Shown: positions 10,599-46,913, counted from the first letter of the stretch. The stretch: 64,000 nt of DNA from Candidatus Pollutiaquabacter aromativorans (GCA_049177215.1 CP185379.1:352957-416956), one strand, 5' to 3'. Program-made: numbers and translations. Notes: generated from the sequence alone by a model not told the origin.

Positions 10599-10609
10599 AC
10601 AACGTGTGA

Positions 10610-18327: not shown

Positions 18328-21300
18328 ATGGGACACAGATTTTACCGCAACGATGGTAAGTTGTTTCAGTGGCGTCTTCTAGTGTTGACATTGTTATTTG
18401 CAACAATGTGGACAATGGGAGCAAGAGCCCAAACAACTGTCACAATTGGCACTGGCACTTCAACAGTGAGCACAGTTCCGATTTATGGCTTTTATGGTTA
18501 TTCGTACTCTCAAATTCTGTACACCGCAACCGATATCACCGGAGGCGGCTGGGCAGGCGGCGCAGCTACGATTACTAACATTCGCTTTTATTTGAATACT
18601 GCTCCGGCGACTCCTGCGAATGACAATAGCTGGACGGTCTATTTGGGTAACACCTCGCTTACCTCCCTCACAGCGGGAGCGGCGAATTATGTGCCTACAA
18701 GCGCAATGACGCAGTGCTTTTCCGGTACGGTAACGTTTCCCGCTGGCGGAAACTGGATGGATATTACACTTTCCACTCCTTTTTCTTATTCGGGTGGTAA
18801 CCTGTTGATTGCAGTAGATGAGAATGCTGCTGGATATTCCTCCGCGTCCTGGCGTTACACAGCCGCTACCGGAATGTCCCGTTATTTGTATAGCGATACC
18901 TATAACCCGGATCCGACGGCGCTTCCGGGTTCTTATTCGGGTACCAGTAGTTCGACTGCAAACCGGCCGAACCTCCAAATGGTGATGGTTGCAGCGCCTG
19001 CCTGTAGTGGCACGCCGAATGGCGGTACTGCTACAGCTGGCACATACAATTTCTGCGGTTCCGGAAGTACACTCTTATCTGTTTCCGGATCGACTTCGGG
19101 TGTAACGGGTTTGTCTTACCAGTGGCAGTCAGGCCCCAGCGCAACGGGTCCCTGGACCAGCATTTCCGGTGCGACCAATGCAACTTATACCACACCTACG
19201 CTGACCACTACTACTTACTATCAGCGTCTGATCTCATGTACAAACAGCGGTCTGTCAAATGTCTCGGATACTACCGTTGTAAATATCAACACGGTTCCTA
19301 CTGTATCCGTGACCCCGACATCCTATAGTTCTTGTACCAGCCCGGTGGCTACTTCTCTTAGTGCATCCGGTGCCAGCACGTATTCCTGGTCACCGGCTGC
19401 GGGTTTGAACGCTACCACCGGTGCTTCGGTTAATGCTTCGGTAACTTCCTCTACCGTCTATACCGTTACGGGTACGAGCACGGAGGGATGTACCGGTACG
19501 GCGACGGCAAGTGTCAACCTCAATTATTCCCCAGCTGCGCCTACGACTACCAATTATTCGATTTGTTTGAATGGTACTGTGCCATCCGGTCAGGGGCTTT
19601 CTGTTCCTGCACCGCCTTCTTCCGGTACAGTAACAGCGGTTTTTACGGGTTCTCCGTTCACCAGTCCTGGTCCTGTAACGAGTGTAAGCACGGTATCAGT
19701 GCCCGGTCTTCCTGCAGGAGCGACCATTACCTCGGCAACCCTTCAGTTATTCACGGTTTCGGCGGTCGGTGCTTCCTATATGTCTGAAATAAGGGTCGCG
19801 CTTACCGGTGCCTATACGCTCGCCGCAACGCAGGTCAGTACTACTGGTTCGTCTGGAACTATTTCGCCTGATCCCGTCGTAAACCTCACAGGCTGGCCTG
19901 CCGCTGGAGGCTCCGTGACATTGGTCTTGTCTGAATCCTATGATGACGGCGGTACCGATGCCACAATCGCTGGTGCCCAAATCGTAATCAATTATTCTGT
20001 ACCAACCACTACAGTTTCCTGGTGGGATGCGGCCTCGGGCGGAACGCAGGTAGGTAGTGGACCGGTTTTCGATCCGGTTGCTGCTTTGCTTGTTAACCCA
20101 AGTGTTTCGGGTAATACCACATTCTATGCTCAGTATGACGCTCCTTCCTGCTCCAGCGCTCGCGTTGCCGCGGTGTTCTCTGTTGGCGCGCCCTTGACGA
20201 TATCAGCCATCACCCCCAATCCGACAGCCATTTGCCAGGGTCAGAATGGAACGTTATCCGTTAGTGTATTATCGGGTTCAGCTCCCTTCACCTATAACTG
20301 GGAAGATGGCGTGACGGGTACTATCAGTACCGCTGCATCGCCAACCATTTCGCCGACCACTACCCTGACCTATACTGTTACTGTTACGGACAACTGTAGC
20401 CAGGCTGCCTCCTCGACGGTGACGGTCCCGGTCAATCCGATCCCTTCAGTTACCGCCAGTGGTTCGGCCGCAGCTTCCTGCGGCGGATCTACGGTAGTAC
20501 TCACAGCCTCGGGAACTGCCACCAGCTACAGTTGGGCGCCCTCCACCGGCCTTAATGCCACCACTGGTGCTTCGGTCAACGCTACACCGACCACCTCAAC
20601 TACCTATACAGTAACAGGTACGCTCGGCGGTTGTACCGCCACCTATACGGTTAGTGTTGGTGCTGGAACAGCCGTCACCGTGAACTCGGTCACGGCCGAT
20701 CCCTCTTCGGTTTGTGTAGGCGGATCTACCCAGTTGAATGCCACCGGTCAGTACGCTAGCGGACTCGGACCGGTGAACACCTATACGTACGCCGGAAGCA
20801 CGAGTGGAGCTACCTTGTATGATCTTTCAGCATTACCCCCGATCCTGACAACAAGCAATGATGATACCCCCTCCGGTATTCTCACCTTGCCTTTCGCCGT
20901 GACGTTTGACGGGGTATCCTATACCGAGTGCTCCGTAAGTCCGGATGGATGGGTGCTCTTCGGGAATACGGCCGCATCGAATCAATTCACCAATCTGGTG
21001 ACGAGTACCACCAACATCCCCAAATTGTATCCTTATTGGGATGATCTGGCAACCGGAACCACAGGTTATGTGAAAGGTGCGGTAGCCGGCACGGCTCCGA
21101 ACCGGGTGCTGATCGTACAGTGGTTCGTAACAATCCCCCGGAATACAACCGGTGCAGCTAACTCCACCTTCGAAGCCCGCATCTATGAAACCACCGGTGT
21201 GGTGGAATTCCACTATGGTGCCATGGGTCCTTCTTCGACCATGAGTGCTTCGGTAGGTATGACCGGTAACGCTACCAACTTCCACAGTGTTACGCTCAGC

Positions 21301-24300
21301 AGTCTCACGTCCAGTACGGTTACGTCAAATGACGGCAATACCGACGTCCCGACCGCTGGTACAATGATCACCTACACTCCGGTTCAGCAATATGCCAGCA
21401 TCTCTTCCTTTAGCTGGTCGCCGGCTTCCGGACTGAACAATACAGCCATCGCCAACCCGACCGCGGGTCCGCTTTCCTCTGCCAGCACCTACACCGTAAC
21501 GGCTACCAGCCCTGCTGGCTGTACGGGTACCGCCTCGATCACAATCAACGTCGGCGATCCTTTGGTACTGGGTGGAATATCCGGTACCAGCACGATCTGT
21601 CAGGGTGCTTCCACCAGCCTGACGGCAACTATCACCTCCGGCAGCGGGCCCTTCACCTATAGCTGGAGCGACGGCTCCAATCCAGTTGGAACGACCAACC
21701 CGATTTCGCTTTCACCTTCGGCTACCACCATCTTCACGGTGACAGTTACGGATGGTTGCTTGGGTACCGCCACTGCTACATACACGGTCAACGTGGACCC
21801 GGCACCTTCGATTTCGGTCAGCCCGACCTCGTCCACCTACTGCTCCAGCGCCGTAGCCCTGACCGCCTCGGGCGGTACCAGCTATGCCTGGTCTCCGTCA
21901 ACCGGCCTGAACGCCACTACGGGCGTTTCCGTCAACGCCTCACCGCTGATCACGACTACCTATACCGTTACCGGTACGGGTTCGAACGGCTGTACTGCCA
22001 CCGCTACGGCTGTGGTTAACAAAGGCACTCCGATCACCAACGTGGTCGCTTCCGCTTCGCCTCAGTCATTCTGTGCACCGGGCGGTAACAGCACCCTGAA
22101 TGTGACGGCTACTGTCAACAGCACCCCTCCTGCAGCTCCAACGACCTACTGCGGCCCTACTGTTCAGTCCGGTGTAGCTTGTGTTTCTCTGGTCACCATC
22201 GGGACTTTGAACAATTCAGGGTCTGCTTGTGTGACACCGTACTATAACACTTACGCACCGACTGGCGCGAATACTACCACGCTTATCCCTGGAACCACTT
22301 ATCCGATCACGGTGACCTGCGCTGCCACAGCGATTGTTTCGGTGTGGATCGACTTCAACCGTGATGGCGTGTATGATGCCAGCGAATGGGTACAACCCTA
22401 TACGACCGGTACGACCGGTACTGTCAACATTACGGTGCCGCTTGGTGCTTCGCTCGGTCAGACCGGTATGCGCGTTCGTTCACGCTCCTCCGGCAATCCC
22501 AACGGCTCTACCGACGCCTGTTCTGACTTCGGTTCAGGCAGTTGCGAAAACTATACGGTGACCATCGGCAGCTTCACGCCGACCACCCTGTCTTACTCCT
22601 GGTCGCCTGCAGCCGGTCTGAACGATCCGTCGCTCCAGAGCCCGACTGCCAGCAGCATTGCCGGCACCACGACCTATACGGTGACCATCAGTGAAACCAA
22701 TGGCTGCACCGCCACTGGCACCACCACCATCGATGTCGGTTCCGCGCTTACCCTGAATCCGATCACGGGTACGGCTACCATTTGCCAGGGCCAGTCCACT
22801 TCATTGACCGCCAGCGTAGCCACGGGTAATGCGCCCTACACCTACGACTGGTCCGATGCTGGTGGTACGGTAGGCACCGGCAACCCGATCTCGCTGAGCC
22901 CCTCGGCTTCCTCGGTCTTCACGGTTACGGTGACAGATGCTTGCGGTCAGACTGCAACCGCTACTTACTCCGTGACGGTGAATAGCGCGCCATCGGTATC
23001 CGCTTCTCCTTCCAGTTCGTCTTATTGTGGTACGGCCGTGGCCCTTTCCGCCTCGGGCGCCGTTACCTACTCTTGGGCTCCCGGAGCCGGCCTGAACGCT
23101 ACCACCGGTTCATCGGTGAATGCTTCGCCGGTCGCTTCAACCACCTATACCGTTACCGGTACCGGATCGAACGGTTGTACGGCAACCGCGACGGCTTCCG
23201 TCACGGTAGGCACTATCTTCACCTCGGTGACCGCTTCTGCAAGCCCGTCCAACATTTGTACGGGTCAGACGGCTAACCTGACGGTGAATGCTACCCTGCC
23301 TCCATGCGCGAACTTCTACAACGTGAACAGCACGACCTACGGTCTGCAGCCGACTGCCGGCTTCACCGCTCTCGCTGGCGCCGATGATGCAGACCTCGCA
23401 ACCGGGATTTCGCTACCGTTCTCCTTCAACTTCTACGGGACCGCGCAAACCTCCATCAACATCAGTTCCAATGGCTATGCCTACTTCGGTGCAGCCAATG
23501 GTGGATCTATCTTCGCGGACGGTGTGACCAACGGTATCAGCGTTTTCTCGGCTGATATGTTCCCGACCGCCGGTCAGGTTTCTTACGGTACCGTGGGCGT
23601 TGCTCCGAACCGGATCTTTGTGATCGATTGGAACGGCATGCCTGAATATGCTGGTGGCGGTACCCATACGGGTCAGCTTCAGATTTTCGAAAGTGGCCTG
23701 ATCCAGATTCATGTGGCTTCTGCTACTTCCTCTACCCGTAACAAGACCCTCGGTCTCCGAAATACTGCCGGAACGGACAACACCTACCCTGCAGGTTTTG
23801 CAAACCTGCCGTGGACGGTGAATACGCCGACCGCCTGGACCTTCAGCCCTTGCATTTCCGCTACGATCACGGCTTACTCCTGGTCGCCCGGTGCTGAACT
23901 GGACGATGCTTCTCTCCAGTCTCCGGTTTATTCCCCGACTGCCAATGGTGTGACGACCTTTACGGTCACCGTCACCAACTCGGGCGGTTGCACGGCAACG
24001 GCGACGACTTCCGTTACGGTCGGTTCTACCATCAACGTTTCTGCTTCGGCAGCTCCGGCTACCATCTGCAGCGGCATCTCGACGACACTGACGGCTACTC
24101 CGACGGGTGGTTGTGGTGCCTACACGTATGATTGGAGCGATGGCGTGACCTCAATTGGTACGACCGCTAGTCTGTCGGTTTCTCCGTCAGCCTCCTCGGT
24201 TTATACGGTAGTAGTCACGGATAACCAGTCCAACTCTTCTTCGGCTACTGTTCCAGTAACCGTTGTAGCGTCTCCGACCGTCTCCATTTCCCCCGCCAGT

Positions 24301-27300
24301 ACGATCCTCTGTACTTCGGCTCCGGTATCGCTGACCGCTTCAGGCGCAAGCAGCTATAACTGGATTGGTACAACGATCACCGGCTCTACCACGGTCAATT
24401 TCGACGTGGCGGCTCAACCGGCTGAAACCAACGCTGCTCCGGGTAACGTGGTTGCTACGGCAACCTTGCCGGCCCTTCCGGCAGGTGCCACGATTACCGG
24501 CGCTACGCTGACGTACAACAACCTGACCGCTCTTGGTACTTCCTGGATGTCAGACATTCGCCTCGGCTTCTCCGGATCGGTTGTAAGCGCTGCAGTGGGT
24601 GGTACGGGATCTACTAATGCCGCAGGAACCTTCAACTATACCAGTTCTTTCGTCCCGACGGTGACCCTGGCTGGTGGTTCAGTCAGCCTGCTCTATTGGG
24701 ATTTCTTTAGCGATAACGCTGGCGCGGAAGCAACCTTCCCGACCGGTACCGCTGTTGCAACCCTGGTGATCAATTATACGCTCCCGGCTAATACTGCCAG
24801 CGTGACCGTAACACCGACCGCTACCACTACTTATACGGTAATTGGTACCGACGGAGTAACCGGTTGCACCAGTTCTGCTACCAGCACGATTACCATCGTT
24901 CCTCCGTTCACCCCGACGGCTTCTGCCAGCCCGGGTGCTGTTTGTTCCGGTGGTGGTTCCGCCCTGTCGGTTTCGGTTTCACCTTCCGGTACCTATACGT
25001 ACTCCTGGACTCCTGCTGCTGGTTTGAACGATCCTTCCAGCGCAAACCCGGTTGCTTCCGGAATCACGTCAACCACGGTATACACGGTGACGGCTACCTA
25101 CACCGGCAGCACCTGTTCTGCTACTGCCACTACTTCCGTGAGCGTCACTCCGCTTTCCTCGGTAACAGTCTCCGCCACTCCGGACGTGATTTGTGCCGGA
25201 CAATCGTCCAGCCTGTCATCCTTCGTCATCGGCGGCGGTGCTCCTTACCAATTTGATTGGTCAGCTGGTTCCGGTACTATTAGTACATCAGCTTCCCTGA
25301 CGGTTACGCCGGCGGGAACCACCAGCTATACCCTTACGGTGACCGATGCCTGCGGCTCTACGCTGACGGCAACACCGGTTACGGTAACGGTGAATCCTTC
25401 ACCGACCACGTTGGCTAACCCGACCTCCGCGCTCTATTGCGGCACGGCGATCTCAGTAACCGCATCCGGTGCCGCAACTTATGCGTGGTCTCCGACGGCA
25501 GGACTGAATAACTCGACTTCCGCTACCGTCCTGGCCAGCCCTACGGCGACCACGACCTACACGGTTACGGGTACCACAGCCGGTTGTTCTTCGACCGCGA
25601 CGGTGGTGATCACAGTCGGTACGCCGATCACGGTGGATGCTACGGCCGACACGACCCAGTCGTGTAGCCCGATGGGCACGGTTCTCCACGCTTGTGTAAA
25701 CCCGTCCTTCAATACCTATACGCTGGATTCTTCCAACGTTGATTACAGCGGTACAGCTGCTTCGATCCAGGTCGGCGGAAACGACGATACGGAAACGATT
25801 CTCGCCATGCCGTTTACCTTCAACTTCTTTGGTACGAACTACAGCCAGGTAATGGTTAGCACGAACGGTTACATCTCGTTCAATACCAGCAATACTTCAT
25901 TAAGTGTTGGATCGATTCCGACGGCCGGTACTCCGGATGCTTTCGTTGCCCTTACCGGTTGCGATCTGCATACACAGACTGCTGGTACGATCGATACCTT
26001 CACGGTCGGTTCGGCTCCGAGCCGGAAGTTCGTGGTTCGTTACAACGACCTGCGCTTCTTCAGCGATGCAACCACCAGTGTTGTTAACGGTAAAATCATC
26101 TTGCACGAAGGCACCGGCATCATCGAGGTACGCGTCGACAACGTGAACTCCGGTACCGACACCCGTACCCGTACGCTGGGTATTGAGAACGCAGGCGGCA
26201 CCGCTGGTTTAGCGGCCCCCGACAAGAACAATACACAATGGAACCAGACGAGTCCGGTCACGTATCGCTTCAGCCCTGCTGCCCGTACTTGTAACAACGC
26301 GGGTATCACCTTCACCTGGTCGCCGGCTACGTCTTTGAGTAGTACAGCTTCCGCTGATCCTACCGTAACCGGTCTGAGCGGAACGACCATCTACACGGTT
26401 ACCGCGCAGAACGCCAGTGGTTGCACCGCCCAGGATACGGTTACATTGATCGTATTCCCGCAGGCTGCCACGCCGACCATCACGCCGAGCGGTCCGCTCA
26501 GCTTCTGTCCGGGTGGCAGCGTAACGCTGACCTCGTCGAACAACACCTTCCCGAACCTGTGGAGCACCAGTGAGACCACCAACTCCATTACGGTGAGCAC
26601 GACCCAGAACATCAGCCTGATTGCTTATGATGCCTTCTGTCCGTCCGCTCCTGCTTCGGTGAACGTGGAACGCTATGACACCATTCAGCCGCTGATCAAC
26701 GTGGATGGTGGTGGAGTAGCACTTTGCGGTTCTTCTACCCGTACCCTGACGGCCGACGGTGGTCCCCAGTTCGTAGCTTGGACCTGGAGTACGACCGAAA
26801 CGACTCAGGCGATCACGATCGGATCCATCGGAACCTATGGTGTATCGGCTCAGGACTTCCACGGTTGTTACACCTACAACTCGGTAACCTTCGTTGCTGG
26901 TCAGACCCCGGTTGCTCCGGTCATTTCGACCACGAGTCCGCTGACGGTTTGTAACAATGATGCGGTAACGATGACCTCCGACCTGGCCGACGGCCTGACC
27001 TGGTCACCGACATTCGACAACACACAGTCGATCACCTACAACCTGTCGCCTCCCGGCACCTACGACTTCTTCGTAACCCGTGATTCGCTGGGTTGTACCT
27101 CCGAGTCGAACCACCTGAACTTCACGGTGAATCCTTCGCCTGATGTGACCGCATTCTCGCCTGCCGATTCGGCTTGTGTGGGTGATGTGATCACCTTAAG
27201 TGGTTCCGGCTTCACGAATGTGACCTCGATCAGCTTCAACGGTACTCCGGCTACCACCTACACCATCGTAGACGACTTCACCATCACGGTGACGGTACCG

Positions 27301-28011: not shown

Positions 28012-28023
28012 TCAACACTATCT

Positions 28024-28051
28024 ATGTCCCCCGCCGCAGGGCGGGGGACAT
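28024..28051 (+). terminator. GC-rich perfect hairpin directly after paralog A (no U-tract)
   Basis: 'atgtcccccgcc'(28024-28035), 'gcag' loop, 'ggcgggggacat'(28040-28051). Confidence 0.4.
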
Positions 28052-28091
28052 ATTACCCAGAGAAACAATAACCAACACTTAATAACGCACA

Positions 28092-33637: not shown

Positions 33638-33661
33638 TCGGCCTGAAGCGTATCATGAAAG

Positions 33662-33702
33662 GAAGTCCTTCCGCTACGGCGGAGGGACTTCTTTTTTTTA
33701 TT
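33662..33702 (+). terminator. intrinsic terminator after the repeat-protein gene
   Basis: Stem 'gaagtccttccgc' / 'ggcggagggacttc' with one bulge. It is followed by a T8 tract 'ttttttttatt'. Confidence 0.7.
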
Positions 33703-36800: not shown

Positions 36801-39692
36801 GGTGTCGTAGGTACCGCTCCGAACCGGATCTTCGTTGTTGATCTGCAGTCGGTCCCGTTCTTTGGAATCGCTTCCGGCAGTAATGTGACCGGTCAGATTC
36901 ATCTATATGAAACCTCAGGCAGGATCGAACTTCATCTTGCGAGCGTACAGCATAACGGTTCAGGTGCCTTGAACGGCATGGGTATCGAAAATGCAAGCGG
37001 TACGCGGGCACATTATCCCTTGGGTCGTAATGGGGGTTTGATCACCTGGAACGTGATCAGTCCGGAAGCATGGCGATTCGACCGTTTGCCTTTCAGCTTG
37101 AATTATTCCTGGACGCCTGCATCCGGCCTGAATAGCAGCTCAATCGCCAATCCGGTTGCCGGTCCGCTCGCAGGTTCTGCGACCTATACGGTAACAGCCA
37201 CCGATAATTTCGGATGTACGGCGACCGCCAGTCTCAGCCTGTCGGTTGGTCAACCCTTGAACGTTCAGGCCGGCGCAACAGCAACCATACTCTGTCTGGG
37301 TAGCAATACCACGCTTCAGGCGATCATCAGCGGGGGAGGGGAGCCATATGGTATTACGTGGAAACAAGGCGTGACCACCATTGGCAATACCGCGGACCTG
37401 GTCGTTACACCTCCGTTGGGCACGACAATTTATACGGTTAGCGTTTCGGATGCATGTGGTGGAACCGGTAGTTCAACGGTTCAGGTGACCGTTCTCAACT
37501 CGCCCTCGGTATCCGTCACCAGCAGTGGAAGTCTGATTTGTGGATCCGGATCCGTTACGATGACCGCTTCCGGGGCCACCAGCTATGTGTGGAGTCCGTC
37601 CATTGGACTGAGTGCGACGACCGGCACAACCGTTATAGCTTCCCCGAATGGAACCACCACCTATACGGTAACCGGATCGATTTCCGGTTGTTCGGCAACT
37701 GCCACCCGTACGATCACGGTGGCGCCGGCTGTACAGCAGTTGGATCTTTCGGCCGATCAGATCAGCGGTTGTAGTCCGTTGACCACCAGCTTGCATGCTC
37801 AGGCCTGTTTCAGCGCGCTCACGAATTATAAGGTGGATTCCTCTTCGGCGGATTATGCTCCAACCAGTTCCGGCTTCGTTACGTTCAATGGTCGTGATGA
37901 CGGTTCCGTCGTGATCGCGCTTCCGTTTCCGTTCCGGTTCTTTGGTAATACCTATTCTTCGGCATACATCAGCACCAACGGATATCTCGGCTTTGGCAGT
38001 AGCTCCTCTGCGTACACCACCGCCACCATGCCTGCTTCGGGAGTGCCGAACAATTTCATTGCCCTCGTATGGAATGACATGATTCATTCGACCGTGAATT
38101 CTGGCGTGGATACCTTTACCGTTGGGTCGCCTGGTGCAAGGGCATTTGTTGTCCGCTTCAATGCCGGGGCCGTTTCTTTTTTTGACGGGACTACGTCATA
38201 CGGTTCGTTCGGCGGCAAGATCATCCTTCATGAAAGTTCCAATGCCATCGAGCTTCGGATCGACGCGATGAATATGGGAGCCTTGGCTACCCGGAATAAA
38301 GTCCTGGGTATCGAGAATTCGACGGGACTGCTCGCCTTTTCCGTTCCCGGAAAGAACAATACCAACTGGGTGCAATCCACTCCGATCACTTATTCCTTCA
38401 CACCCAGTTTGCAGTGTTCCGGTACGTCCGCGTTTATGTATGCCTGGAGTCCTTCAACGGGATTGAATGATCCCGCATCCGCCAACCCTGTATTGACTAA
38501 TCTGCTGTCGGGAACAACCTATACGGTTACGGCTACATCAAGCGACGGTTGCAGTCGGACTTCGACACTCAGCATCCAGGTCTACAATAACCCTCCTGTC
38601 CCCACGGTTACAACCACGGGTTCCACGGATCTCTGCTGGGATGGGGTCAATCCGTTGTCATCGGTCTTATTGACCGCAGATACAACCGGTAGTGGGCCGG
38701 GTGCATCGTTCATGTGGAATGATGTTTATGGAACGTCTTCCACCAGTTTGAATGTCACACCGGATGTGGTCATTCCTTCTCCCTATGGTTTCCAGGCAAT
38801 AGTTACTGACTTCAGAGGGTGTTCGTCAACCTCAACACCGGTCAGCGTCTCTACGGCCTTGTATCCGACGATCGCCTCGCTGAATCCGAGTTCGGGTTGT
38901 CCGGGAGATTCCATCGATGTGGCGGGCACTAATTTTTCGACAGTCGTCTCGGTGGATTTCTTCGGTGTGCCAGCAGGCTTCAGGATCGTGAATGCAAACC
39001 TCCTTCGGATCGAAGTTCCACCCGGCGCGCTGAGTGGTTCCATTAACCTTGCTACCAGCACCGGTTGTTCCGAATCGTCTTCCATGTCGTTTACTGTGAA
39101 TACCTGCGGCGGTTCGCTCCTGGACATGACCTTGCTGATCCAGGGTTATTATGACGGCGCGGGCGGTATGACCGGTACCTTGTACAATTCGGGAATTTCG
39201 TTCGATCCTACCGATTGTGAATTCCTGCATGTCTGCTTGATGGATGCCGGAACGCTGACGGAGACCGACTGTTTCGATGAAGTCCTGAAAACGAACGGCA
39301 GCCTGCAGATTTCGATTCCTGGCGGGTATGTGGGCTCTTCCTTCTACCTCAAGATCACGGGCCGAAACATTCTGGAAACCTGGACGACCGCCCCGGTTCA
39401 GATCGTCAGTCCGTTCACTGTACTTGATCTGACAACTGCAGCCAACACCGTCTTCGGTGACAACCAGGTTCAGGTTTCAACTGCACCGGCCCGTTGGGCA
39501 ATCTGGAGTGGCGATTTGAATCAGGACGACTTGATTGAGGCGACTGATTATAGTACCATGGAAAACGATGTGCAACAATTCCTATTCGGCTATGTGCCAT
39601 CTGACATTACCGGTGATGGAATCGTTGAGGCCTCGGATTATGCGCTAGTAGAGAACAACAGTTTGTTGTTCCTATTCTCAATAACCCCCTGA
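33840..39692 (+). CDS. giant secreted multi-repeat surface protein (1950 aa), paralog B, with the same module grammar and the same C-terminal module (a more diverged variant)
   Basis: Signal peptide 'LIILSVYSVFFFAIRVNAQ'. The N-terminal recurring module is 'FSFTFAGTAYTQFSVNSNGLMRLG...GTAPNRQLTVEWTI...QAWLFETSNVVQYVY'. SprB-like 'FCFGGTTNLTANATGGGVPYSYSWSTGG'. It ends 'WAIWSGDLNQDDLIEATDYSTMENDVQQFLFGYVPSDITGDGIVEASDYALVENNSLLFLFSITP'. Confidence 0.85.
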   Translation: MSRLPSGKSGSYCFVRTLIILSVYSVFFFAIRVNAQTASQYTFSTATGASLTTMTGSTLIMGSNLDDSASTTINIGFSFTFAGTAYTQFSVNSNGLMRLGSTAVTNAWQNGITTGPFPALMPLWDDGHTGSNGGVRYLLTGTAPNRQLTVEWTIRSYSGETGNYTKTFQAWLFETSNVVQYVYGTGTAATSASIGIASSSTAYQSVSTSTNTASTTTPNNSVTTWAGSGRTYVFTPPVIQNCSGTPAAGTVSGTNVLCSGLTTILTASGATPTSFGGISYQWQESDDNGVGDPWASVVGGSGGTTLVYTTPALTTSRYYRLLVSCSFSGLSASTTEYLVTVNPRPTVTVSPTTSTLCAGNSVVLTASGADTYAWSPSTGLNATTGASVTATPTVSTTYTVTGTTTSSGCTATATSAINTTVGINASAGANPVNICPGGATTLNAVANTSTSGYTLASIPYQLYPTTGFTTITSWTGTADDGSAAVTLPFNWFFYGNSYTSAFIGTNGYLIFGTTSTAYQAVAIPATAAPNNYIALCWTDLNPGSGGTISYGTVGTAPNRVFVVDYSGVLFYNASGSIATGQICLFEDGHIEIHATTLDRGTSTAAAVMGIENSGGTAGTAVTGRNGGTWSVTAPEAWSFTPAYPAFTYSWSPATGLSNPNIANPGVTGVVTTSSYTVTVSGGGGCAATATATIITGQPFSVSAASSANNFCFGGTTNLTANATGGGVPYSYSWSTGGTTIGTTGALTVAPPAGTTTYTVSASDNCGNTSSATVSVTVIAPPNVGATASSSLVCGSGSVTLNATGANGYSWVPADELSVPFGATVTASPSVSTLYTVTGTDAAGCTATATVQLTVVPGVTLQATATPSNLCTGTSSQLNANATQEAPYSLAQVAYLPLSTAGFQTITSWTSAGTGNDDYFGPVALPFSFNFFGQNKSQLYIGSNGFITFGTPSTDPFSQLFPDPAHPNDVVALCWGDLDPGAGGTVKYGVVGTAPNRIFVVDLQSVPFFGIASGSNVTGQIHLYETSGRIELHLASVQHNGSGALNGMGIENASGTRAHYPLGRNGGLITWNVISPEAWRFDRLPFSLNYSWTPASGLNSSSIANPVAGPLAGSATYTVTATDNFGCTATASLSLSVGQPLNVQAGATATILCLGSNTTLQAIISGGGEPYGITWKQGVTTIGNTADLVVTPPLGTTIYTVSVSDACGGTGSSTVQVTVLNSPSVSVTSSGSLICGSGSVTMTASGATSYVWSPSIGLSATTGTTVIASPNGTTTYTVTGSISGCSATATRTITVAPAVQQLDLSADQISGCSPLTTSLHAQACFSALTNYKVDSSSADYAPTSSGFVTFNGRDDGSVVIALPFPFRFFGNTYSSAYISTNGYLGFGSSSSAYTTATMPASGVPNNFIALVWNDMIHSTVNSGVDTFTVGSPGARAFVVRFNAGAVSFFDGTTSYGSFGGKIILHESSNAIELRIDAMNMGALATRNKVLGIENSTGLLAFSVPGKNNTNWVQSTPITYSFTPSLQCSGTSAFMYAWSPSTGLNDPASANPVLTNLLSGTTYTVTATSSDGCSRTSTLSIQVYNNPPVPTVTTTGSTDLCWDGVNPLSSVLLTADTTGSGPGASFMWNDVYGTSSTSLNVTPDVVIPSPYGFQAIVTDFRGCSSTSTPVSVSTALYPTIASLNPSSGCPGDSIDVAGTNFSTVVSVDFFGVPAGFRIVNANLLRIEVPPGALSGSINLATSTGCSESSSMSFTVNTCGGSLLDMTLLIQGYYDGAGGMTGTLYNSGISFDPTDCEFLHVCLMDAGTLTETDCFDEVLKTNGSLQISIPGGYVGSSFYLKITGRNILETWTTAPVQIVSPFTVLDLTTAANTVFGDNQVQVSTAPARWAIWSGDLNQDDLIEATDYSTMENDVQQFLFGYVPSDITGDGIVEASDYALVENNSLLFLFSITP

Positions 39693-39820
39693 TTAGATTT
39701 GAAAGGTCGTAATGGTCGGCCGGAGGTTTACCAAGTAAATTGTCGCGTTTGCATAAAAACCGGACTTGGGCATGGTTTTTCTTCTGAAATCAACGATATT
39801 TAGGAGAAACGCCCCCTCGA

Positions 39821-42800
39821 ATGAACCGGAAACGCTACCCGATGAAGGCAGCCTGTAGCTGGCTGCTTGCTCTACTGCTCTTTTCTAACCTGGTCCAGGC
39901 ACAGCCTGCGAATACGTACACCTTTACAACCGGTACCGGTGTTTCTTTGGAGACGCTCAGCGCTCCGGTGGTGCTGGTGGGTTCCGGTGTAGATGATACT
40001 CCGGCATCTGCCGCTTCGGCCATCGGATTTTCATTCACCATCAACTCCAACAACTATTCGAATTTTTGGGTGAACGCAAACGGCCTGTTCGGTTTCGGAA
40101 CATCGCCGAGTACGTCGTACTCGAATTCAATTACAGCACCGCCAAGTTTCCCGGCCCTGATGCCCTGGTGGGATGACATGGGCACCGGTACAAACGGGAA
40201 CGTTCAGTACCAATTATTGGGAACATCGCCTAATCGGAAATTGGTTGTTGAATGGCGAGTTCGGAACATAGGAGAGACGGGCAACTATACCAAGACCTAT
40301 CAGCTCTGGTTGTTCGAAAGCAACTTTGCCATTCAATTCGTGTATGGGACAGGCACCGCCGGATCCTCGGCATCGATCGGCATGTCAACATCGGCTACCG
40401 AGTACCAGAGTGTTACGACCACATCGAATACCGCTTCGACGACAACTCCTGCCAATACCCAGTCCACATTTCCCGCATCCGGTCGGTATTATTTATTTAC
40501 GCCTGCCTCCTGTGCCGGAACACCCAGCCCGGGTAACACCCTTGCTTCTGCCAACCCGGTCTGCAGCGGCAGCGCTTTGACGCTATCGATGTCAACTCCT
40601 CCTTCCAGCATCGGCATCACCTACCGATGGCAGACTTCGCCGGATGGTTCGACCTGGACCAACGTAGCCGGTGCCGCTGGAAACAACGTTACCTTATCCG
40701 CGAACCCGACGGTTGCAACGTACTACCGTTGCCGTGTCACCTGTTCTGCTTCCGGCCTCAACGGCTTCTCAACGCCTTTGTTGGTGAATGTGGTGAATTG
40801 CTATAACATGCAGAATGGCTCTTTGTCCAACGTCTGTTCGGCCAGGTTTTATGATTCGGGAGGACTGGCCGCTGCTTATGCTAATGCGGAATCTTATACT
40901 CTTACCATTTATCCTACACCCGGAAATTTGCTTCGCGTGCAATTCAACTCCTTCGTCACCGAAAGCGGGTATGATTACTTGTCCATTTACAATGGCAATT
41001 CAACGGCCGCGCCTCTTTTGCTCAACACTTCCGGCTCCACCGTGCCCGGAACCTATACCTCTTCGGCCACTGATGGATCATTGACATTCCGGTTCACGTC
41101 CGACATCAGTATCACCTATGCCGGTTGGGATGCCTTATTGAGTTGTGTTTCGCTTCCTGTATGTAGTGGAACACCGACTGCCGGTACTATCAGTGGAACA
41201 TCCGGCCTGTGTGCAGGAGGAACGACAACCCTTACCGCCTCCGGATTTTCGTCCGGTGTTTCAGGGCTTTCGTTTCAATGGGAGGAGTCGGATGACAATG
41301 GCGTGGCTGATCCCTGGGCGAATGTCGTCGGTGGATCGGGTGCCAATACGAATAGCTATACCAGCCCGGCCCTGAGTGTTTCCAGGTATTACCGGATGCG
41401 GGTCACTTGTTCAAATGGAGGCGGTACTGCCACGACTTCCGGTTATTTGGTTACTGCTAATCCGCTTCCTACAGTGGCAATTGCTGCCAATCCGGGTACG
41501 ACCATTTGCGGACCGGGTGCGATTAACCTGAGCGCTTCCGGAGCTGACACCTACAACTGGTCACCTGCTTCCGGCTTGAACGCTACTACCGGTGCTTCAG
41601 TCACGGCCACCCTTTCGAGTTCTACCAGTTATACAGTTGTCGGTACGATCACTGCTACGGGGTGCACTGCGACACAAAGTGTTTCACTCAATTTGTTGCC
41701 GGGCTATTCGGTGAATGCGACGGCTAATCCGGTCAACATTTGTTCCGGTGGAAGCGCTCAACTCAACGCTGTTGCTCAAATGCCCTCAAGTTCCTATCTG
41801 TTGAATCCGATTTCTCCCGCATTGGTTTCCACCGCAGGATTCGCGACAGGCCCCGCGTCCGATGATGCGATCGTTGGCCCCATCACACTGCCCTTCAACT
41901 TCAATTTCTTCGGGTCACCGGAAGATTCGCTGTATATCTCCTCGAACGGTCATATCATATTTGGTAATTCGGCACCCGCGAGTCAATTGGCGGGCCTCAA
42001 CATACCGGATGCAACAGATCCCGATAACGTCATCGCGCTCTGCTGGGCCGACCTCAATCCGGGCTCTTCCGGTTCGGTCACCTATGGTACGGTGGGCACA
42101 GCGCCCAACAGGATCTTTGTGATCAGTTGGAACGCCGTACCGTTTTACCTGCAGTCCGGAAGCAACGTCACCGGTCAGATCCAATTGTACGAAGGTTCCA
42201 ATATTGTGGAGGTTCACATCAGCGTAATCAACCGGGGTGCATCGACCTCAAATACCGTTTTGGGGATTGAAAATGCTACCGGTTCAAGTGGACTTGCGCC
42301 CGCCAGTCGTAACGGCGGAACATGGTCGGTGAGCAGTCCGGAGGCCTGGCGATTTTCACCTTACGTTCCGGGTTATACCTATGCATGGACCCCTTCGACC
42401 GGACTCGATAATCCAACCATTCCGATGCCGATCGCCAGTGGAGTGTCAGGCACGACCGTTTATACCGTGACGGTTACGGCGGATGGTGTGTGCACGGCAA
42501 CGGCAACTGCCCTGGTGAACGAAGGAGTCGCACTGAGTGCTACGGCTTCCGCGCTTCCTGCTTCGGTATGCGAAGGGCAATCGACGCAACTGAGCGGGGC
42601 CGCTTCCGGTGGCGGGGAACCATTCGCCTATAGTTGGTCCGACGGCGTAACCGAAATCGGGACCACGCAATTGCTGACGATCACTCCCCCGGTTGGATCT
42701 TCCACCTATTACCTGACCGTTGCCGACGCCTGTGGGGGCAGCACGTCCACTACTGTTGTCGTCACCGCCCTTCCAGGGCCGGTACTTGCCCTGCAACCGG

Positions 42801-45415
42801 TTAGCGCGGTGTATTGCGGAACACCACTTGCGCTTACGGCATCTTCGGGCGGCGGAACAACCTTTGGCTGGTCGCCTGCAACGGGATTGAACGCTACCAC
42901 CGGCTCTTCTGTTAGTGCGAGTCCGGCGACCGCCACGACGTATACTGTCACCGCGACTGCTACTAATGGTTGTACGATTAGTGGTACTATTCCCATTACG
43001 ATCGGAACCCCGCTGACGGTTAGTGTCGGCGCGGACACTACACAGGGATGTGCTCCCTTCGGCTCTGTACTGCGGGCTTGTGTCAATCCGACCTTCAATA
43101 CCTATACGTTGGATTCTGCTGCCACCGATTATTCACCAGTCGGATCAACCGCTTTCATTACACTGTCCAGTGCAGATGATGGCGATGCGGCGGTCAATCT
43201 GCCGTTCCCGTTCAACTTCTATGGCGTGAATTACACCTCGATACGCGTTGGATCGAATGGCTACATCGGGATGGGAACCACCCCGGTGACTTCCCTGGCC
43301 AATCAGGCGCTTCCTTCAGCCACGGCGCCTAACGGAATCATCGCCTTGTGTTGGGACGATCTGCTTCACAGCGGACTGGCCACGGGCATCGATACATTTA
43401 CGGTGGGAACCGCGCCCAATAGAAAGTTTGTCGTCCGGTATAACGCAGGAGCGGTCGCGTTCTACAACATCGGATCACAAACCGGTTCCTTGGGCGGTAA
43501 GATCGTTTTGCATGAAGGAACCGGAGTCATCGAAGTCAGGATCGATGTGATGAATAAAGGGGTACGGATCGATAACCAGACGCTTGGAATCGAAGATGCG
43601 GCCGGATTGGCGGCTGTAACGCCTCCGGGAAAGAACAATCTGGATTGGCTTCAATCGACACCACGAACCTATCGGTTCACTCCTGCTGCACAACAGTGCA
43701 ACAACACCGGTATCTCGTTTGACTGGACACCGGCTGCCACCCTGCATGCAACAAACCTGGACACCGCTGTTATCACAGGACTGAACAGCACAACCATTTT
43801 TACCGTAACCGCGTCGAACGCTTCGGGATGCAGTGCTCAGGATACGGTGCAGATATTCGTATCGCCACAAGCTCCTACACCGGTGATTTCGAGCAGCGGA
43901 CCGCTTTCCTTCTGCCCGGGCGGAAGCGTGACGTTAACTTCTTCCAGTACGGCTTTCCCGAATTACTGGAGTACCGGCGAAACAACGAATTCGATAACAG
44001 TAAATACTACCCAGACCGTTTCGGTTTACAGTTCGGATGCTTTTTGTCCTTCCGGCCGGGCTTATGTCGATGTCGTGCGATTCGATACGGTTCCGCCGCT
44101 GATCAACGTCTCCGGCGGCGGACTCGCGCTATGTTCGGGCAACCGTGATCTGCTCTCCGATGGCGCACCGCTCTTCGTAGCCTGGAGTTGGAGCACCGCC
44201 GAAACCTCTCAGCAAATCACGATCATGAATCCCGGGACCTATGCAGTGGCCGCTACGGATACCAATGGCTGTGTAACGCATGCGGAGATAACGTTCACGG
44301 CAGGTGTCGCTCCGGTGGCCCCTGTGATCTCCACCTTGAGTTCGCTCAGTGTATGCAACAATGAATACGTGACGATCGATTCCGATATTCCGGATGGGCT
44401 CACCTGGTTCCCGACGTTTGACAATACACCGTCGATCGCCTACAACCTTTCACCTCCGGGAGTATACGACTTCTACGTTTCGCGCGACTCCCTGGGTTGT
44501 ACCTCGGAGTCCAATCACCTGGTCTTTACGGTCAATCCGACTCCGGAGGTATATTTCTTCCTGCCGGCGGACTCCGCCTGTGTGGGCGATGTCATCACCC
44601 TCAACGGTTCGGGGTTGAGCAATGTGTCTTCTATCAGCTTTAATGGCACTCCGGTCAGCGTATTCTCGGTGCTCGATGATTACACCATTCAGGTTACTGT
44701 TCCAGTCGGCGCTACGTCGGGAGGCATCACCCTGACCGATGGTTCCACCGGTTGCGCGGGTGTAAGTCCGCTGTTTTCGATTAAGGAAGTTTGCGGAGTC
44801 AGTGTAAACCTGAAGGTTTGGTTGCAGGGGTATTGTTTGCCAACTCCGTTCGGAGGTAGTATGATGCCGGTCTGGACGCAACAAATGCGATCAGATTTAG
44901 GCAATGGCAATCCGGGTTCTCCAGCAGGCACGGAAACCGATTTGGTCTATGTCGGACTCTACGACGACAATCATGTACTGCAATTTGAAGATTCGGTCAT
45001 GATCATGACGGATGGAACCGGTAGGATCGATCTCCCGGCGGCTTTCAATGGCAATAGTTATTATCTCCTGATCAAGCATCGTAGTCATGTCGCAATCCGC
45101 AGCGCCGGCTTGGTACTTATGAGCCCGGTAGTGACCTATGATTTCACGCTGTCAGAAAGTCAAGCGGATAATAACGGATCAAACTTCGGTATGACCCAGC
45201 TCTCCAATGGCGAGTGGGCGATGTGGGTAGGTGATGTTACCCAGGACGGATTTGTCGGGGGTGACGACGTGGGAAGTGTCGACAATGACAACTTGCTCGG
45301 GATTTATCTGGAGTATAGAAATTCGGATGTGACCGGGGATGGCTTCGTTGGTGGAGATGATGTCGGTGCGGTTGACAACAATAATCTCTTGGGGGTCTAC
45401 TATTTCTATCCCTGA
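39821..45415 (+). CDS. giant secreted multi-repeat surface protein (1864 aa), paralog C; the last ~560 aa are about 70% identical to paralog A
   Basis: Signal peptide 'CSWLLALLLFSNLVQAQ'. It has the same N-terminal module as B ('FSFTINSNNYSNFWVNANGLFGFG...GTSPNRKLVVEWRV'). The C-terminus is 'WAMWVGDVTQDGFVGGDDVGSVDNDNLLGIYLEYRNSDVTGDGFVGGDDVGAVDNNNLLGVYYFYP'. Confidence 0.85.
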   Translation: MNRKRYPMKAACSWLLALLLFSNLVQAQPANTYTFTTGTGVSLETLSAPVVLVGSGVDDTPASAASAIGFSFTINSNNYSNFWVNANGLFGFGTSPSTSYSNSITAPPSFPALMPWWDDMGTGTNGNVQYQLLGTSPNRKLVVEWRVRNIGETGNYTKTYQLWLFESNFAIQFVYGTGTAGSSASIGMSTSATEYQSVTTTSNTASTTTPANTQSTFPASGRYYLFTPASCAGTPSPGNTLASANPVCSGSALTLSMSTPPSSIGITYRWQTSPDGSTWTNVAGAAGNNVTLSANPTVATYYRCRVTCSASGLNGFSTPLLVNVVNCYNMQNGSLSNVCSARFYDSGGLAAAYANAESYTLTIYPTPGNLLRVQFNSFVTESGYDYLSIYNGNSTAAPLLLNTSGSTVPGTYTSSATDGSLTFRFTSDISITYAGWDALLSCVSLPVCSGTPTAGTISGTSGLCAGGTTTLTASGFSSGVSGLSFQWEESDDNGVADPWANVVGGSGANTNSYTSPALSVSRYYRMRVTCSNGGGTATTSGYLVTANPLPTVAIAANPGTTICGPGAINLSASGADTYNWSPASGLNATTGASVTATLSSSTSYTVVGTITATGCTATQSVSLNLLPGYSVNATANPVNICSGGSAQLNAVAQMPSSSYLLNPISPALVSTAGFATGPASDDAIVGPITLPFNFNFFGSPEDSLYISSNGHIIFGNSAPASQLAGLNIPDATDPDNVIALCWADLNPGSSGSVTYGTVGTAPNRIFVISWNAVPFYLQSGSNVTGQIQLYEGSNIVEVHISVINRGASTSNTVLGIENATGSSGLAPASRNGGTWSVSSPEAWRFSPYVPGYTYAWTPSTGLDNPTIPMPIASGVSGTTVYTVTVTADGVCTATATALVNEGVALSATASALPASVCEGQSTQLSGAASGGGEPFAYSWSDGVTEIGTTQLLTITPPVGSSTYYLTVADACGGSTSTTVVVTALPGPVLALQPVSAVYCGTPLALTASSGGGTTFGWSPATGLNATTGSSVSASPATATTYTVTATATNGCTISGTIPITIGTPLTVSVGADTTQGCAPFGSVLRACVNPTFNTYTLDSAATDYSPVGSTAFITLSSADDGDAAVNLPFPFNFYGVNYTSIRVGSNGYIGMGTTPVTSLANQALPSATAPNGIIALCWDDLLHSGLATGIDTFTVGTAPNRKFVVRYNAGAVAFYNIGSQTGSLGGKIVLHEGTGVIEVRIDVMNKGVRIDNQTLGIEDAAGLAAVTPPGKNNLDWLQSTPRTYRFTPAAQQCNNTGISFDWTPAATLHATNLDTAVITGLNSTTIFTVTASNASGCSAQDTVQIFVSPQAPTPVISSSGPLSFCPGGSVTLTSSSTAFPNYWSTGETTNSITVNTTQTVSVYSSDAFCPSGRAYVDVVRFDTVPPLINVSGGGLALCSGNRDLLSDGAPLFVAWSWSTAETSQQITIMNPGTYAVAATDTNGCVTHAEITFTAGVAPVAPVISTLSSLSVCNNEYVTIDSDIPDGLTWFPTFDNTPSIAYNLSPPGVYDFYVSRDSLGCTSESNHLVFTVNPTPEVYFFLPADSACVGDVITLNGSGLSNVSSISFNGTPVSVFSVLDDYTIQVTVPVGATSGGITLTDGSTGCAGVSPLFSIKEVCGVSVNLKVWLQGYCLPTPFGGSMMPVWTQQMRSDLGNGNPGSPAGTETDLVYVGLYDDNHVLQFEDSVMIMTDGTGRIDLPAAFNGNSYYLLIKHRSHVAIRSAGLVLMSPVVTYDFTLSESQADNNGSNFGMTQLSNGEWAMWVGDVTQDGFVGGDDVGSVDNDNLLGIYLEYRNSDVTGDGFVGGDDVGAVDNNNLLGVYYFYP

Positions 45416-45597
45416 GAGATCCGAAAAATGTTTATCCCAGGTCAGGGTGTCCAATACCCTGCAGGATCGATTGGCAACCTGATTTGGAAGTTGTATTTAG
45501 AGGGTAAGAAAAAATAGCGATTTCAGGGTTTTTGCCCTGAATTGCAGGTTATTCATGATCCCAATGTTGAAAAAGGACTTGTCTTTCTAGCAAAAAC

Positions 45598-46881
45598 ATG
45601 TTAAATTTATCGCAAATACGAATTACTATGAGCAATGCCAAGAGGGCGAGTTTGATCGCTATTTTAATGACCTGTCTTAATCTGGGCAGTTTGTTTGCGC
45701 AGGATCCAGGCTTCTCGGTGTCGGTTGGAAACGCCCATTATATCGCACCCAACTTGTTTGAGTTTGATATCATGATCCAGTCCACTGGTTCACCGGCGAC
45801 GTTCAACTTCCGTACTTTCCAGGGTGGATTATTTATTAATCCTTCGTGGAAAGGAGCAGGAACCATTACCGCCAGTTATGTCTCCGGATCCACTCAGTTG
45901 AGCGGGCTTGGTTACAATGGTTCGATTCAGTGGAATCCTTCCGACAACTTCATCAACCTTTCGGTCAATACCGGAGTCCGTAACGGCGGCTCGCCTCAGG
46001 CAACGGTCATTGGTACTTCGCCGGTTCGTGTCATGACGATGCGGTTGTTCAGCACCGCCAATTTCAATTGCTCGACTTCGCCTAACCTTCAGTTTAATTA
46101 CAACCAATCTGTTACTCCGCTTCGGTTGCGTTCCGCTGTATCGTGGAGAACGGCCAACCCGGATGTCAATTACAACCTGCATTACCCGGGTCGGACTTTT
46201 GGCGGAACCGCAGTATTCAACGGCGAGACCTGGTCGCTGTCGGATGCAGATGGACGATCGCCTGTTAACAGCGCGGCCAACCCGTCGTCCTGTCCTTTGC
46301 AGATGAACCTGGTGACCTTCATCCAGGCATTTGTCAATCCTTCTACCGGCTTGATGGATAATTCAGGTTCTGGCCTGTTGAACGCGCTCGGCGAATCACC
46401 CAATTCCATGGACGTTGATACCATTACGGTCACCCTGGTGAACTCTTCCACCCTTGCCGATGTAGAGTCGCAGAAGGTGATTTTGAAATCAGACGGGTCA
46501 TCGCTGACCTATTTTACCGGTTCTGCAATTGGTACGAGTTGTTACATCCGCGTGAATCACCGGAATTCGCTCGAAACCTGGAGCGCGGGTCCTGTGAACA
46601 TGGCTGCAAATACAACCTATAATTTCTCCAGTAATCAGAATCAAGCCTACGGCGACAACCTCGTACAGGTAGCCGGTGTTTGGGCCATGTATTCCGGTGA
46701 TGTCAATCAGGATGGTTTCATCGGTGGTGATGACGTTGGCGCGGTAGATAATGATAACCTGGCTGGTTTGTTCTTCACGTATACGACCAGTGACATCAAT
46801 GGTGATTTGTTTGTGGGTGGCGATGATGTCGGCGTAGTGGATAACAACAACCTGGCTGGCGTCTACTTGCTCCGCCCCTGA
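45598..46881 (+). CDS. short paralog D (427 aa): signal peptide, a ~150-aa N-terminal domain shared with the 28092 protein, and the family C-terminal module with twin dockerin-like loops
   Basis: The likely true start is 'MSNAKRASLIAILMTCLNLGSLFAQ' at 45628. The C-terminal half 'SCYIRVNHRNSLETWS...VWAMYSGDVNQDGFIGGDDVGAVDNDNLAGLFFTYTTSDINGDLFVGGDDVGVVDNNNLAGVYLLRP' aligns with the A/B/C C-termini. Confidence 0.8.
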   Translation: MLNLSQIRITMSNAKRASLIAILMTCLNLGSLFAQDPGFSVSVGNAHYIAPNLFEFDIMIQSTGSPATFNFRTFQGGLFINPSWKGAGTITASYVSGSTQLSGLGYNGSIQWNPSDNFINLSVNTGVRNGGSPQATVIGTSPVRVMTMRLFSTANFNCSTSPNLQFNYNQSVTPLRLRSAVSWRTANPDVNYNLHYPGRTFGGTAVFNGETWSLSDADGRSPVNSAANPSSCPLQMNLVTFIQAFVNPSTGLMDNSGSGLLNALGESPNSMDVDTITVTLVNSSTLADVESQKVILKSDGSSLTYFTGSAIGTSCYIRVNHRNSLETWSAGPVNMAANTTYNFSSNQNQAYGDNLVQVAGVWAMYSGDVNQDGFIGGDDVGAVDNDNLAGLFFTYTTSDINGDLFVGGDDVGVVDNNNLAGVYLLRP

Positions 46882-46913
46882 TGAAAAAGTAAATCCCCAC
46901 GAGAATATCAAAA

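Follow-up and report, generated by a model that had tools for sequence, protein, structure and literature searches.

A C-terminal module resembling the X-module-dockerin dyad, and cohesin-like domains, in a cluster of giant proteins of Candidatus Pollutiaquabacter aromativorans: a predicted T9SS-anchored display system

The gene cluster and its shared C-terminal module

We analysed a 64,000-nt stretch of Candidatus Pollutiaquabacter aromativorans DNA (GCA_049177215.1 CP185379.1:352957-416956), hereafter the window, which contains five genes arranged on the same strand in the order A, E, B, C and D with intergenic gaps of 81-203 bp. Four of these genes (A, B, C and D) end in a common module of about 200 amino acids (aa), which resembles the dyad of an X module and a dockerin (XDoc) and is the subject of this work, together with a cohesin-like domain that was detected in E and in D. 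The four plus-strand open reading frames (ORFs) are present where an earlier note on this DNA, made from the sequence alone, had placed them. The proteins A, B and C carry the XDoc-like module, E combines a cohesin-like domain, a stalk and the C-terminal domain (CTD) of a type IX secretion system (T9SS) substrate, and D combines a cohesin-like domain with the XDoc-like module. The genes are the following:

18328..28011, plus strand: gene A, a 3227-aa Sec-exported giant with Ig_7, GEVED and PKD-like domains and a C-terminal XDoc-like module
28092..33637, plus strand: gene E, predicted surface anchor, in three ORF pieces
33840..39692, plus strand: gene B, a 1950-aa giant with NIDO, weaker and sub-threshold Ig_7 and PKD-like matches, and a C-terminal XDoc-like module
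39821..45415, plus strand: gene C, a 1864-aa giant with NIDO, Ig_7 and CUB domains and a C-terminal XDoc-like module
45598..46881, plus strand: gene D, 427 aa, adaptor-type, with a signal peptide, a cohesin-like domain and an XDoc-like module

A signal peptide of the Sec type, with A-Q as its cleavage motif, is present at the start of A, B, C and D alike. The bodies of A, B and C, which match the Pfam domains Ig_7 (CHU_C-associated), GEVED, NIDO, CUB and PKD-like, are paralogous (A and C are 61% identical across ~1000 aa, and B and C 42%), and D has only the module in common with them. The same note had described the bodies as built from SprB-type repeats; no Pfam SprB-repeat match was obtained in the bodies of A-C, and such repeats are found instead in the intervening gene E.

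When a profile built from 46 modules was run against the six-frame translation of the window, exactly four matches were obtained, all C-terminal, one in each of A, B, C and D and each running up to the stop codon. The same family profile joins A, C and D to their relatives at E-values of 1e-60 or lower. The matches begin within about 20 nt of the starting points proposed earlier (A ~27400, B ~39115, C ~44800 and D ~46295):

27385..28008, plus strand: XDoc-like module of A (beta-sandwich ~27385-27819, dockerin ~27820-28008)
27829-27864 and 27922-27957, plus strand: Ca loops of the A dockerin
39093..39689, plus strand: XDoc-like module of B, canonical dockerin subtype (PF00404 24.4 bits, cut-off 22.9; also matched by the module hidden Markov model, HMM)
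44786..45412, plus strand: XDoc-like module of C, 70% identical to the A module
46285..46878, plus strand: XDoc-like module of D, GGDDVG subtype, like A and C

Because the alignment identity to the A module is 70% for C, 43-44% for D and only 27-28% for B, the motifs quoted in the earlier note (KVWLEGYCLP, GGDDVG and others) describe A and C, and partly D, but not B, which is worded differently. The dockerin of B has the canonical wording (GDLNQDDLIEATDY / GDITGDGIVEASDY) and belongs to the common subtype, whereas A, C and D share the unusual GGDDVG subtype.

The modules occupy the position at which comparable giants of Bacteroidota have a T9SS CTD. The tails of A-D gave no match to PF18962, TIGR04183 or TIGR04131, which represent type A and type B CTDs, even at an E-value of 1, in agreement with the earlier statement that these proteins lack both CTD types. 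With these libraries, type A CTDs were recovered in the neighbours that had been credited with them, 13897-15456 on the minus strand and 30848-33637.

The likeness of the module to dockerins is supported by several results. The tail of B, searched as a 269-aa fragment, matched PF00404 (Dockerin_1) with 24.4 bits against a gathering cut-off of 22.9, the score of the full-length protein being 18.9 bits, and this dockerin was the sole named domain in direct Pfam and NCBIfam scans of the four tails. Among the 46 aligned relatives, 26 match Dockerin_1 at an E-value of 0.01 or lower (best 1.6e-8). A profile of the four modules searched against the PDB gave sequence matches that were all dockerins, including the chains 2b59_B and 3kcp_A, each of which is an X module followed by a type II dockerin; the alignment extends back into the X module, and the match to these two chains is weak (E-value 0.14-0.5). 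A dockerin was taken to consist of two tandem segments of ~22 residues with acidic or polar ligands at loop positions 1, 3, 5, 9 and 12. Two tandem EF-hand-like loops are present, each with a helix behind it (residues 158-169 and 189-200 of the structural model). In both loops, positions 1, 5 and 12 are Asp in 43-46 of the 46 sequences, position 3 is N, T or S, and position 9 is D or E in most modules. The twin D-x-[NTS]-x-D-G-x-[IV]-x-x-x-D loops noticed earlier are therefore real and conserved among the relatives, and we regard the resemblance to dockerins, judged from these sequence comparisons, as genuine homology.

The beta-rich block that precedes the loops belongs to no Pfam or NCBIfam family, whether the four tails or the 46 aligned modules are considered, and no sequence homology of this X part to cellulosomal X modules was established (best E-value 0.14-0.5). 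The AlphaFold2 model of the module (predicted local distance difference test score, pLDDT, 92.4; predicted template modelling score 0.89) nevertheless superposes as a whole on the X-module-plus-dockerin dyad, the Ig-like beta-sandwich immediately preceding the dockerin and packing against it in a fixed orientation, so that the fold is not the unfamiliar one it had seemed. Given the dockerin homology, the family profile and the conservation of the Ca loops, the ~200-aa tail of A-D is predicted to be an XDoc-like dyad, in which an Ig-like beta-sandwich packs against a duplicated Ca-binding dockerin. XDoc is a known architecture, and the tails appear to represent a lineage of it whose X-like part has no sequence model.

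Breadth of the module family

The family was delimited by an exhaustive HMMER search of 1.84 billion cluster representatives, which yielded 9605 matches at an E-value of 1e-3 or lower, 4971 at 1e-10 and 649 at 1e-30, with the whole module covered in almost all of the best 150 matches. A word-index homology search with the A module had returned 5 close fragments only, and the wider family was seen solely by the exhaustive profile search. The host genomes are those of Bacteroidota (Flavobacterium, Flavobacteriales, Chitinophagaceae, Saprospiraceae, Lentimicrobiaceae and Bacteroidales) and Ignavibacteria, mostly metagenome-assembled genomes (MAGs) with one cultured Flavobacterium. The proteins (144 to 4197 aa among 149 representatives re-scored locally) are annotated in their sources as 'hypothetical', 'SprB repeat-containing' or 'Dockerin type I domain', and their cargo is diverse, comprising SprB repeats, Ig_7, GEVED, fn3, beta-helix, RCC1, CARDB, M12 peptidases and PKD. 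The module is thus not peculiar to the four paralogues but belongs to a family with thousands of clusters. One could envision that the shared tail is a mere product of recent duplication within the cluster, with no modular function of its own, as the paralogous bodies of A, B and C might suggest. We rejected this reading and consider it extremely improbable, because D has only the module in common with A-C and because the module is found on unrelated cargo in thousands of clusters and in two phyla.

Some contigs with the module come from MAGs that are labelled Sulfuritalea, Bifidobacterium, Saccharibacteria and Dehalogenimonas (L002, which is CAZGQB010000031.1, L028/L055, L033 and L042), which probably points to mistakes in binning or labelling. 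The A/E junction of the window and L002 are 93% identical.

Two relatives show an unusual placement of the module, the family being otherwise strictly C-terminal. P0012 (2628 aa) has one module directly behind the signal peptide and a second at its C-terminus, and P0010 (1313 aa) has five tandem modules with degenerate dockerin loops. The tail of P0010 resembles a T9SS CTD by eye, and our home-made CTD HMM gave no match to it.

Another possible hypothesis is that the XDoc-like module is a third class of T9SS sorting signal, read by the translocon or its shuttle, and that the cohesin-like genes described below are merely co-regulated. This would account for the position of the module, which lies no more than 3 residues from the protein end in 142 of the 149 representatives, and for the terminal P or P[YF] of 141 of these 142; the family, moreover, was seen in T9SS-bearing phyla only, and cargo of the kind found here (Ig_7 'CHU_C-associated', SprB repeats) usually bears type B CTDs. 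However, cellulosomal dockerins are usually C-terminal too, and the extreme C-terminus is here a helical dockerin, in contrast to the beta-sandwich of known CTDs. An N-terminal copy, as in P0012, does not fit a sorting signal either. Furthermore, the module is followed in some relatives by a canonical type A CTD (P0033 and P0079, detected by the home-made CTD HMM) or by a CTD recognised by inspection only (P0077 and P0010), which would be redundant if the module itself were the signal. The presence of module and CTD in one protein indicates that XDoc is, in these relatives, a displayed module and not the export signal; it argues, though not conclusively, against a sorting function of the module in general. 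Since the tight reciprocal adjacency with genes for a cohesin fold would also be left unexplained, we think that a sorting signal is decidedly unlikely.

The cohesin-like domain and its linkage to XDoc genes

The N-terminal part of D and gene E contain the following features:

45694..46281, plus strand: cohesin-like domain of D, ~190 aa, between the signal peptide and the XDoc-like module
28185..28616, plus strand: cohesin-like domain of E
29139..31646, plus strand: 81-bp tandem repeat in E, 30.8 copies, encoding the 27-aa stalk units
33401..33631, plus strand: T9SS type A CTD of E (PF18962 56.5 bits, TIGR04183 47 bits)

The N-terminal domain of D had no Pfam match, and sequence searches of the PDB gave only noise or nothing. 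A fold search (Foldseek) with its model returned cohesins as the top matches (E-value 1.4e-4), 2zf9 (ScaE) and 5lxv being among the matches, and the nine-stranded jelly roll of a cohesin is present in the model (pLDDT 64.8 overall, 66-90 in the core). Further copies were sought among the retrieved XDoc proteins by local iterative HMM searches. The domain lies directly behind the signal peptide in the small XDoc proteins P0048, P0187, P0206, P0225, P0127, P0152 and P0120. It occurs four times in tandem, spaced by SprB repeats, in P0147 (1841 aa), and twice, with SprB repeats between the copies, in P0138 (1758 aa), both of which end in a C-terminal XDoc. From their domain order, these large proteins and the small ones appear to be scaffoldin-like and adaptor-like layouts. 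The N-terminus of E matches the cohesin-like HMM in a non-circular test (E-value 8.7e-9). Cohesin was also looked for across the remainder of the window, with no match. Canonical Pfam Cohesin domains near XDoc genes were also considered, and none was present in the precomputed annotations of long contigs. The earlier note had suggested a cohesin-like partner encoded elsewhere in the genome; instead, cohesin-like domains are found in D and in the gene directly after A.

The signal peptide of E is followed by the cohesin-like domain, SprB repeats, a stalk built from 27-aa units (about CYETASFNTTTCSWDVTGTQPAQPTLA), five PKD_6 domains and the type A CTD. With a cohesin-like N-terminus and a CTD it is part of the system rather than the mere neighbouring cargo gene for which 28092-33637 had been taken. 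The reading frame of E is broken into three ORFs by single-base indels at two points of the 81-bp repeat array, where there is one T too many near 30025 and one G too many near 30860. These frameshifts would reflect either an assembly error or a recent inactivation that makes E a pseudogene.

Strong long-stem terminator-like hairpins were found only 3′ of E and 3′ of D:

33657..33696, plus strand: terminator-like hairpin just 3′ of E, 18-bp stem and T run, consensus match only
46910..46943, plus strand: terminator-like hairpin 3′ of D, 15-bp stem and T run, consensus match only

The total number of terminator-like sites was not above that in shuffled sequence. The location of the two hairpins solely after E and D suggests two putative transcription units, A-E and B-C-D, each closed by a cohesin-like gene.

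To place this arrangement in other genomes, 60 genome loci fetched via the XDoc module were translated in six frames and scanned with the cohesin-like profile. A cohesin-like ORF in the same orientation comes directly after the XDoc gene, beginning within a few hundred bases of its stop codon, in 13 of the 60 loci with the first profile and in 14 with an iterated profile, which added L002; at three further loci the cohesin-like domain is within the XDoc protein itself. In five cases the downstream protein is small (286-329 aa) and made up of a signal peptide, the cohesin-like domain and a type A CTD (PF18962 34.8-52.4 bits, cut-off 27); these five come from Chitinophagaceae, Saprospiraceae, Ignavibacteria and other MAGs. 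In the reverse search, an alignment of three cohesin-like-plus-CTD proteins was used against metagenome contigs and returned 8 loci, in which CTDs were called by the home-made HMM. A CTD-ended cohesin-like protein with an XDoc-terminated ORF upstream on the same strand was found in 7 of these. In 5 the two ORFs are immediate neighbours, and in L068 and L070, a single locus present in two copies, the XDoc ORF is ~1.1 kb away.

Several individual loci deserve mention. On an activated-sludge contig (L065), an XDoc gene is followed by a cohesin-like-plus-CTD gene, and an 822-aa protein that joins a cohesin-like domain to XDoc, as in the adaptor layout of D, is encoded on the opposite strand (1962-4427, minus strand). 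The proteins directly 3′ of the XDoc genes at L008 (3628-5433) and L037 (3706-6267) are CTD-ended according to the home-made HMM, and the cohesin-like profile detects no domain in them; they may bear divergent sockets, in which case the adjacency count may be an underestimate. At the locus of Flavobacterium sp. 3HN19-14 (L013), the protein encoded next to the XDoc gene, downstream of it, has a C-terminal tail that is CTD-like by eye; as the home-made CTD HMM gave no match, this protein was counted as cohesin-like only.

Alternatively, the dockerin-like repeats might serve only in Ca-dependent folding or stabilisation, or in glycan binding, the 'cohesin-like' domain might be a CBM3-like module (CBM, carbohydrate-binding module), and the genes might encode adhesins of a common pathway. 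The failure of Pfam Cohesin to match speaks for this explanation, as does the fact that most XDoc genes have no adjoining cohesin-like gene, and many non-cellulosomal dockerins, as Peer and colleagues reportedly noted in 2009, have no known cohesin partner. On the other hand, many dockerins for few cohesins is the normal ratio in cellulosomes, the two domains are fused in scaffoldin-like patterns in D, P0138 and P0147, and the succession of an XDoc stop and a cohesin-like start recurs over orders and phyla, in agreement with the reverse search. We consider this explanation unlikely.

The earlier note had also placed porU and porV downstream of the cluster. A PorV/PorQ-family protein is indeed encoded at 59418-60197 (96 bits, cut-off 90), but PorU was not found in the window by family and PDB searches, and 56898-59096 matches weakly only the C-terminal end of PorZ, with no useful PDB match. 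The PorV/PorQ-family gene looks split, with overlapping ORFs at 59135-59671 and 59418-60197 of which the second half alone matches NF033709; the split may be a further frameshift, hinting at assembly indel errors. Elsewhere in the window, the N-terminal half of the protein encoded at 13897-15456 on the minus strand weakly resembles the T9SS-dependent outer-membrane proteins TapA/TapC (78 bits, cut-off 500). The 489-aa ORF directly 5′ of A (16255-17724), which is overlapped by a 317-aa ORF on the opposite strand, matches the outer-membrane protein Wzi of capsule assembly only weakly and below the threshold. The upstream 13 kb (10-13244) form a polysaccharide-biosynthesis cluster with an asparagine synthase, two family 4 glycosyltransferases, a Wzy-like protein, an oxidoreductase fusion, a polysaccharide deacetylase and a sugar transferase, and a family 2 glycosyltransferase gene (62737-63870) is found at the opposite end of the window.

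Proposed display mechanism and related systems

The fold assignments, the dockerin homology, the conservation of Ca ligands, the breadth of the family and the reciprocal adjacency with cohesin-like (and CTD-bearing) genes were all computed here. One interpretation of these results, which we consider probable from the sequence and model evidence, is that the cluster encodes a T9SS-anchored cohesin-dockerin display, in which the XDoc plugs of giant surface proteins would fit the cohesin-like sockets of the same cluster. E would be exported by Sec, routed by its CTD via the T9SS and fixed on the outer surface, in keeping with the usual behaviour of proteins with a type A CTD, and its cohesin-like socket would then stand at the N-terminal end of a long stalk. 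Non-covalent plugging into sockets via XDoc is envisaged for A and perhaps for B and C, and D, with a plug as well as a socket, would serve as an adaptor through which the assembly could be lengthened or branched. The outcome would be that adhesin-like giants are kept on the surface of a Gram-negative member of the Bacteroidota by cohesin-dockerin bonds instead of their own CTD. The two dockerin subtypes (GGDDVG in A, C and D, common in B) make two binding specificities possible. Docking onto a cohesin-like partner, one of several options raised in the earlier note, is the interpretation that fold and gene context favour most, and it is from context that Ca-dependent binding is argued. We infer physical binding, the matching of dockerin to socket, the surface anchoring of E and the outer-membrane route of the CTD-less proteins.

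A number of observations weigh against the docking model. The tails of A, C and D gave no PF00404 match and thus do not reach the Pfam dockerin threshold; in the same three proteins, position 9 of the Ca loop is Gly. Pfam Cohesin (PF00963) matched neither D nor any of 11 domain copies at an E-value of 1 or lower. The cohesin assignment comes from fold only, on a model with a pLDDT of 64.8, and CBM3 and mu-homology domains rank not far below cohesins in the fold matches. About three quarters of the XDoc genes in other genomes have no detectable adjoining cohesin-like gene. With its two frameshifts, E could be a pseudogene in this organism rather than the victim of an assembly error. Finally, the docking model gives no explanation for how Sec-exported proteins that have no CTD cross the outer membrane.

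One could envision for this last step that an XDoc protein folds in the periplasm and locks onto a CTD-bearing partner, so that both pass the SprA translocon together. Such piggyback export, which seems to us somewhat unlikely, would make secretion of the hitchhiker depend on the great mechanical strength of the cohesin-XDoc bond, and would account for the position of the anchor gene directly behind the cargo gene. It is conceivable because the T9SS is reported to export folded, very large proteins (PMC9251779).

Cohesin-dockerin bonds are best known from the cellulosomes of Gram-positive bacteria, and the closest structural and logical analogues of the proposed system are the type II XDoc-cohesin pair of Clostridium thermocellum and the type III XDoc-ScaE pair of Ruminococcus flavefaciens. 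In C. thermocellum, the X module and dockerin of CipA bind the cohesins of SdbA, OlpB and Orf2p (PDB 3kcp, 5g5d and 2b59). As in the predicted system, the partner with the cohesin fold is on a protein with a cell-surface attachment module, and adaptors combine a cohesin with XDoc. The systems differ in that the host is here Gram-negative and the anchor a T9SS type A CTD rather than SLH repeats, and in that adhesin-like giants and assorted enzymes, instead of a cellulase scaffoldin, would be the docked proteins. Sequence identity is ~15%, the X-like and cohesin-like parts here have no Pfam or NCBIfam model, and the module is ~50 residues longer, with a conserved terminal Pro.

In R. flavefaciens, the XDoc of ScaB and of the adhesin CttA binds the cohesin of ScaE, which is sortase-anchored to the cell wall. 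The resemblance is that XDoc tethers an adhesin and scaffoldins to a small single-cohesin anchor, as proposed here, and that the anchor is fixed covalently to the envelope through a C-terminal sorting signal, as predicted for E. The attachment step of the T9SS, which PorU carries out, resembles the action of a sortase as well. The two systems differ, however, in envelope and sorting machinery, no sequence relationship is detectable, and the docked proteins here would also have to cross the outer membrane.

Related arrangements are also known nearer to the Bacteroidota. For 'Ca. Stygibacter' (Cloacimonadota), a cohesin scaffoldin with a T9SS-type CTD and dockerin-bearing enzymes have been inferred (PMC8542988). 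That organism likewise belongs to the FCB (Fibrobacteres-Chlorobi-Bacteroidetes) superphylum, its cohesin protein is proposed to be CTD-attached, and its signal-peptide proteins have C-terminal dockerins; but its cohesins and dockerins are canonical and detectable by InterPro, and its scaffoldin carries tandem cohesins and CBMs for enzymes, whereas we find a cryptic cohesin, an XDoc dyad, anchors that usually have a single cohesin, and mostly adhesin-like giant cargo. In Chlorobium chlorochromatii, the neighbouring genes Cag_2038 and Cag_2037 encode a protein with a C-terminal dockerin and one with an N-terminal cohesin (bioRxiv 10.64898/2026.03.19.712371). There, too, a giant dockerin-ended protein, with Ig repeats, is encoded beside a cohesin-started protein and is proposed to be held on the cell surface of an FCB bacterium. 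Unlike the system proposed here, that pair is linked to a type I secretion system and to an RTX domain, and its cohesin is canonical type II; its description includes neither an XDoc family nor a T9SS CTD anchor. With T9SS CTDs themselves (TIGR04183/PF18962 and TIGR04131) the module shares a strictly C-terminal position, T9SS-bearing phyla and similar giant repeat proteins, but it matches none of their profiles, its terminal element is a helical Ca-binding dockerin, and it can coexist with a true CTD. Dockerins in Bacteroidetes were already known (PMC6487960), and the literature searched, of which coverage was incomplete, contained no description of the XDoc family, the cryptic cohesin-like family or their pairing with a T9SS CTD.

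If the proposed mechanism is true, a large unannotated branch of the cohesin-dockerin systems mounts giant adhesins and enzymes on the surfaces of environmental Bacteroidota and Ignavibacteria, a branch that comprises thousands of XDoc-tailed proteins and a T9SS-anchored cohesin-like family, invisible to Pfam and NCBIfam. Two domain families now called 'hypothetical' would gain names, and potentially new orthogonal cohesin-dockerin pairs would become available for surface display in Gram-negative hosts. The passage of CTD-less proteins across the outer membrane in T9SS-bearing phyla would also become testable, and such experiments are feasible because the cultured Flavobacterium sp. 3HN19-14 has the gene pair, at the loci L013 and L030.

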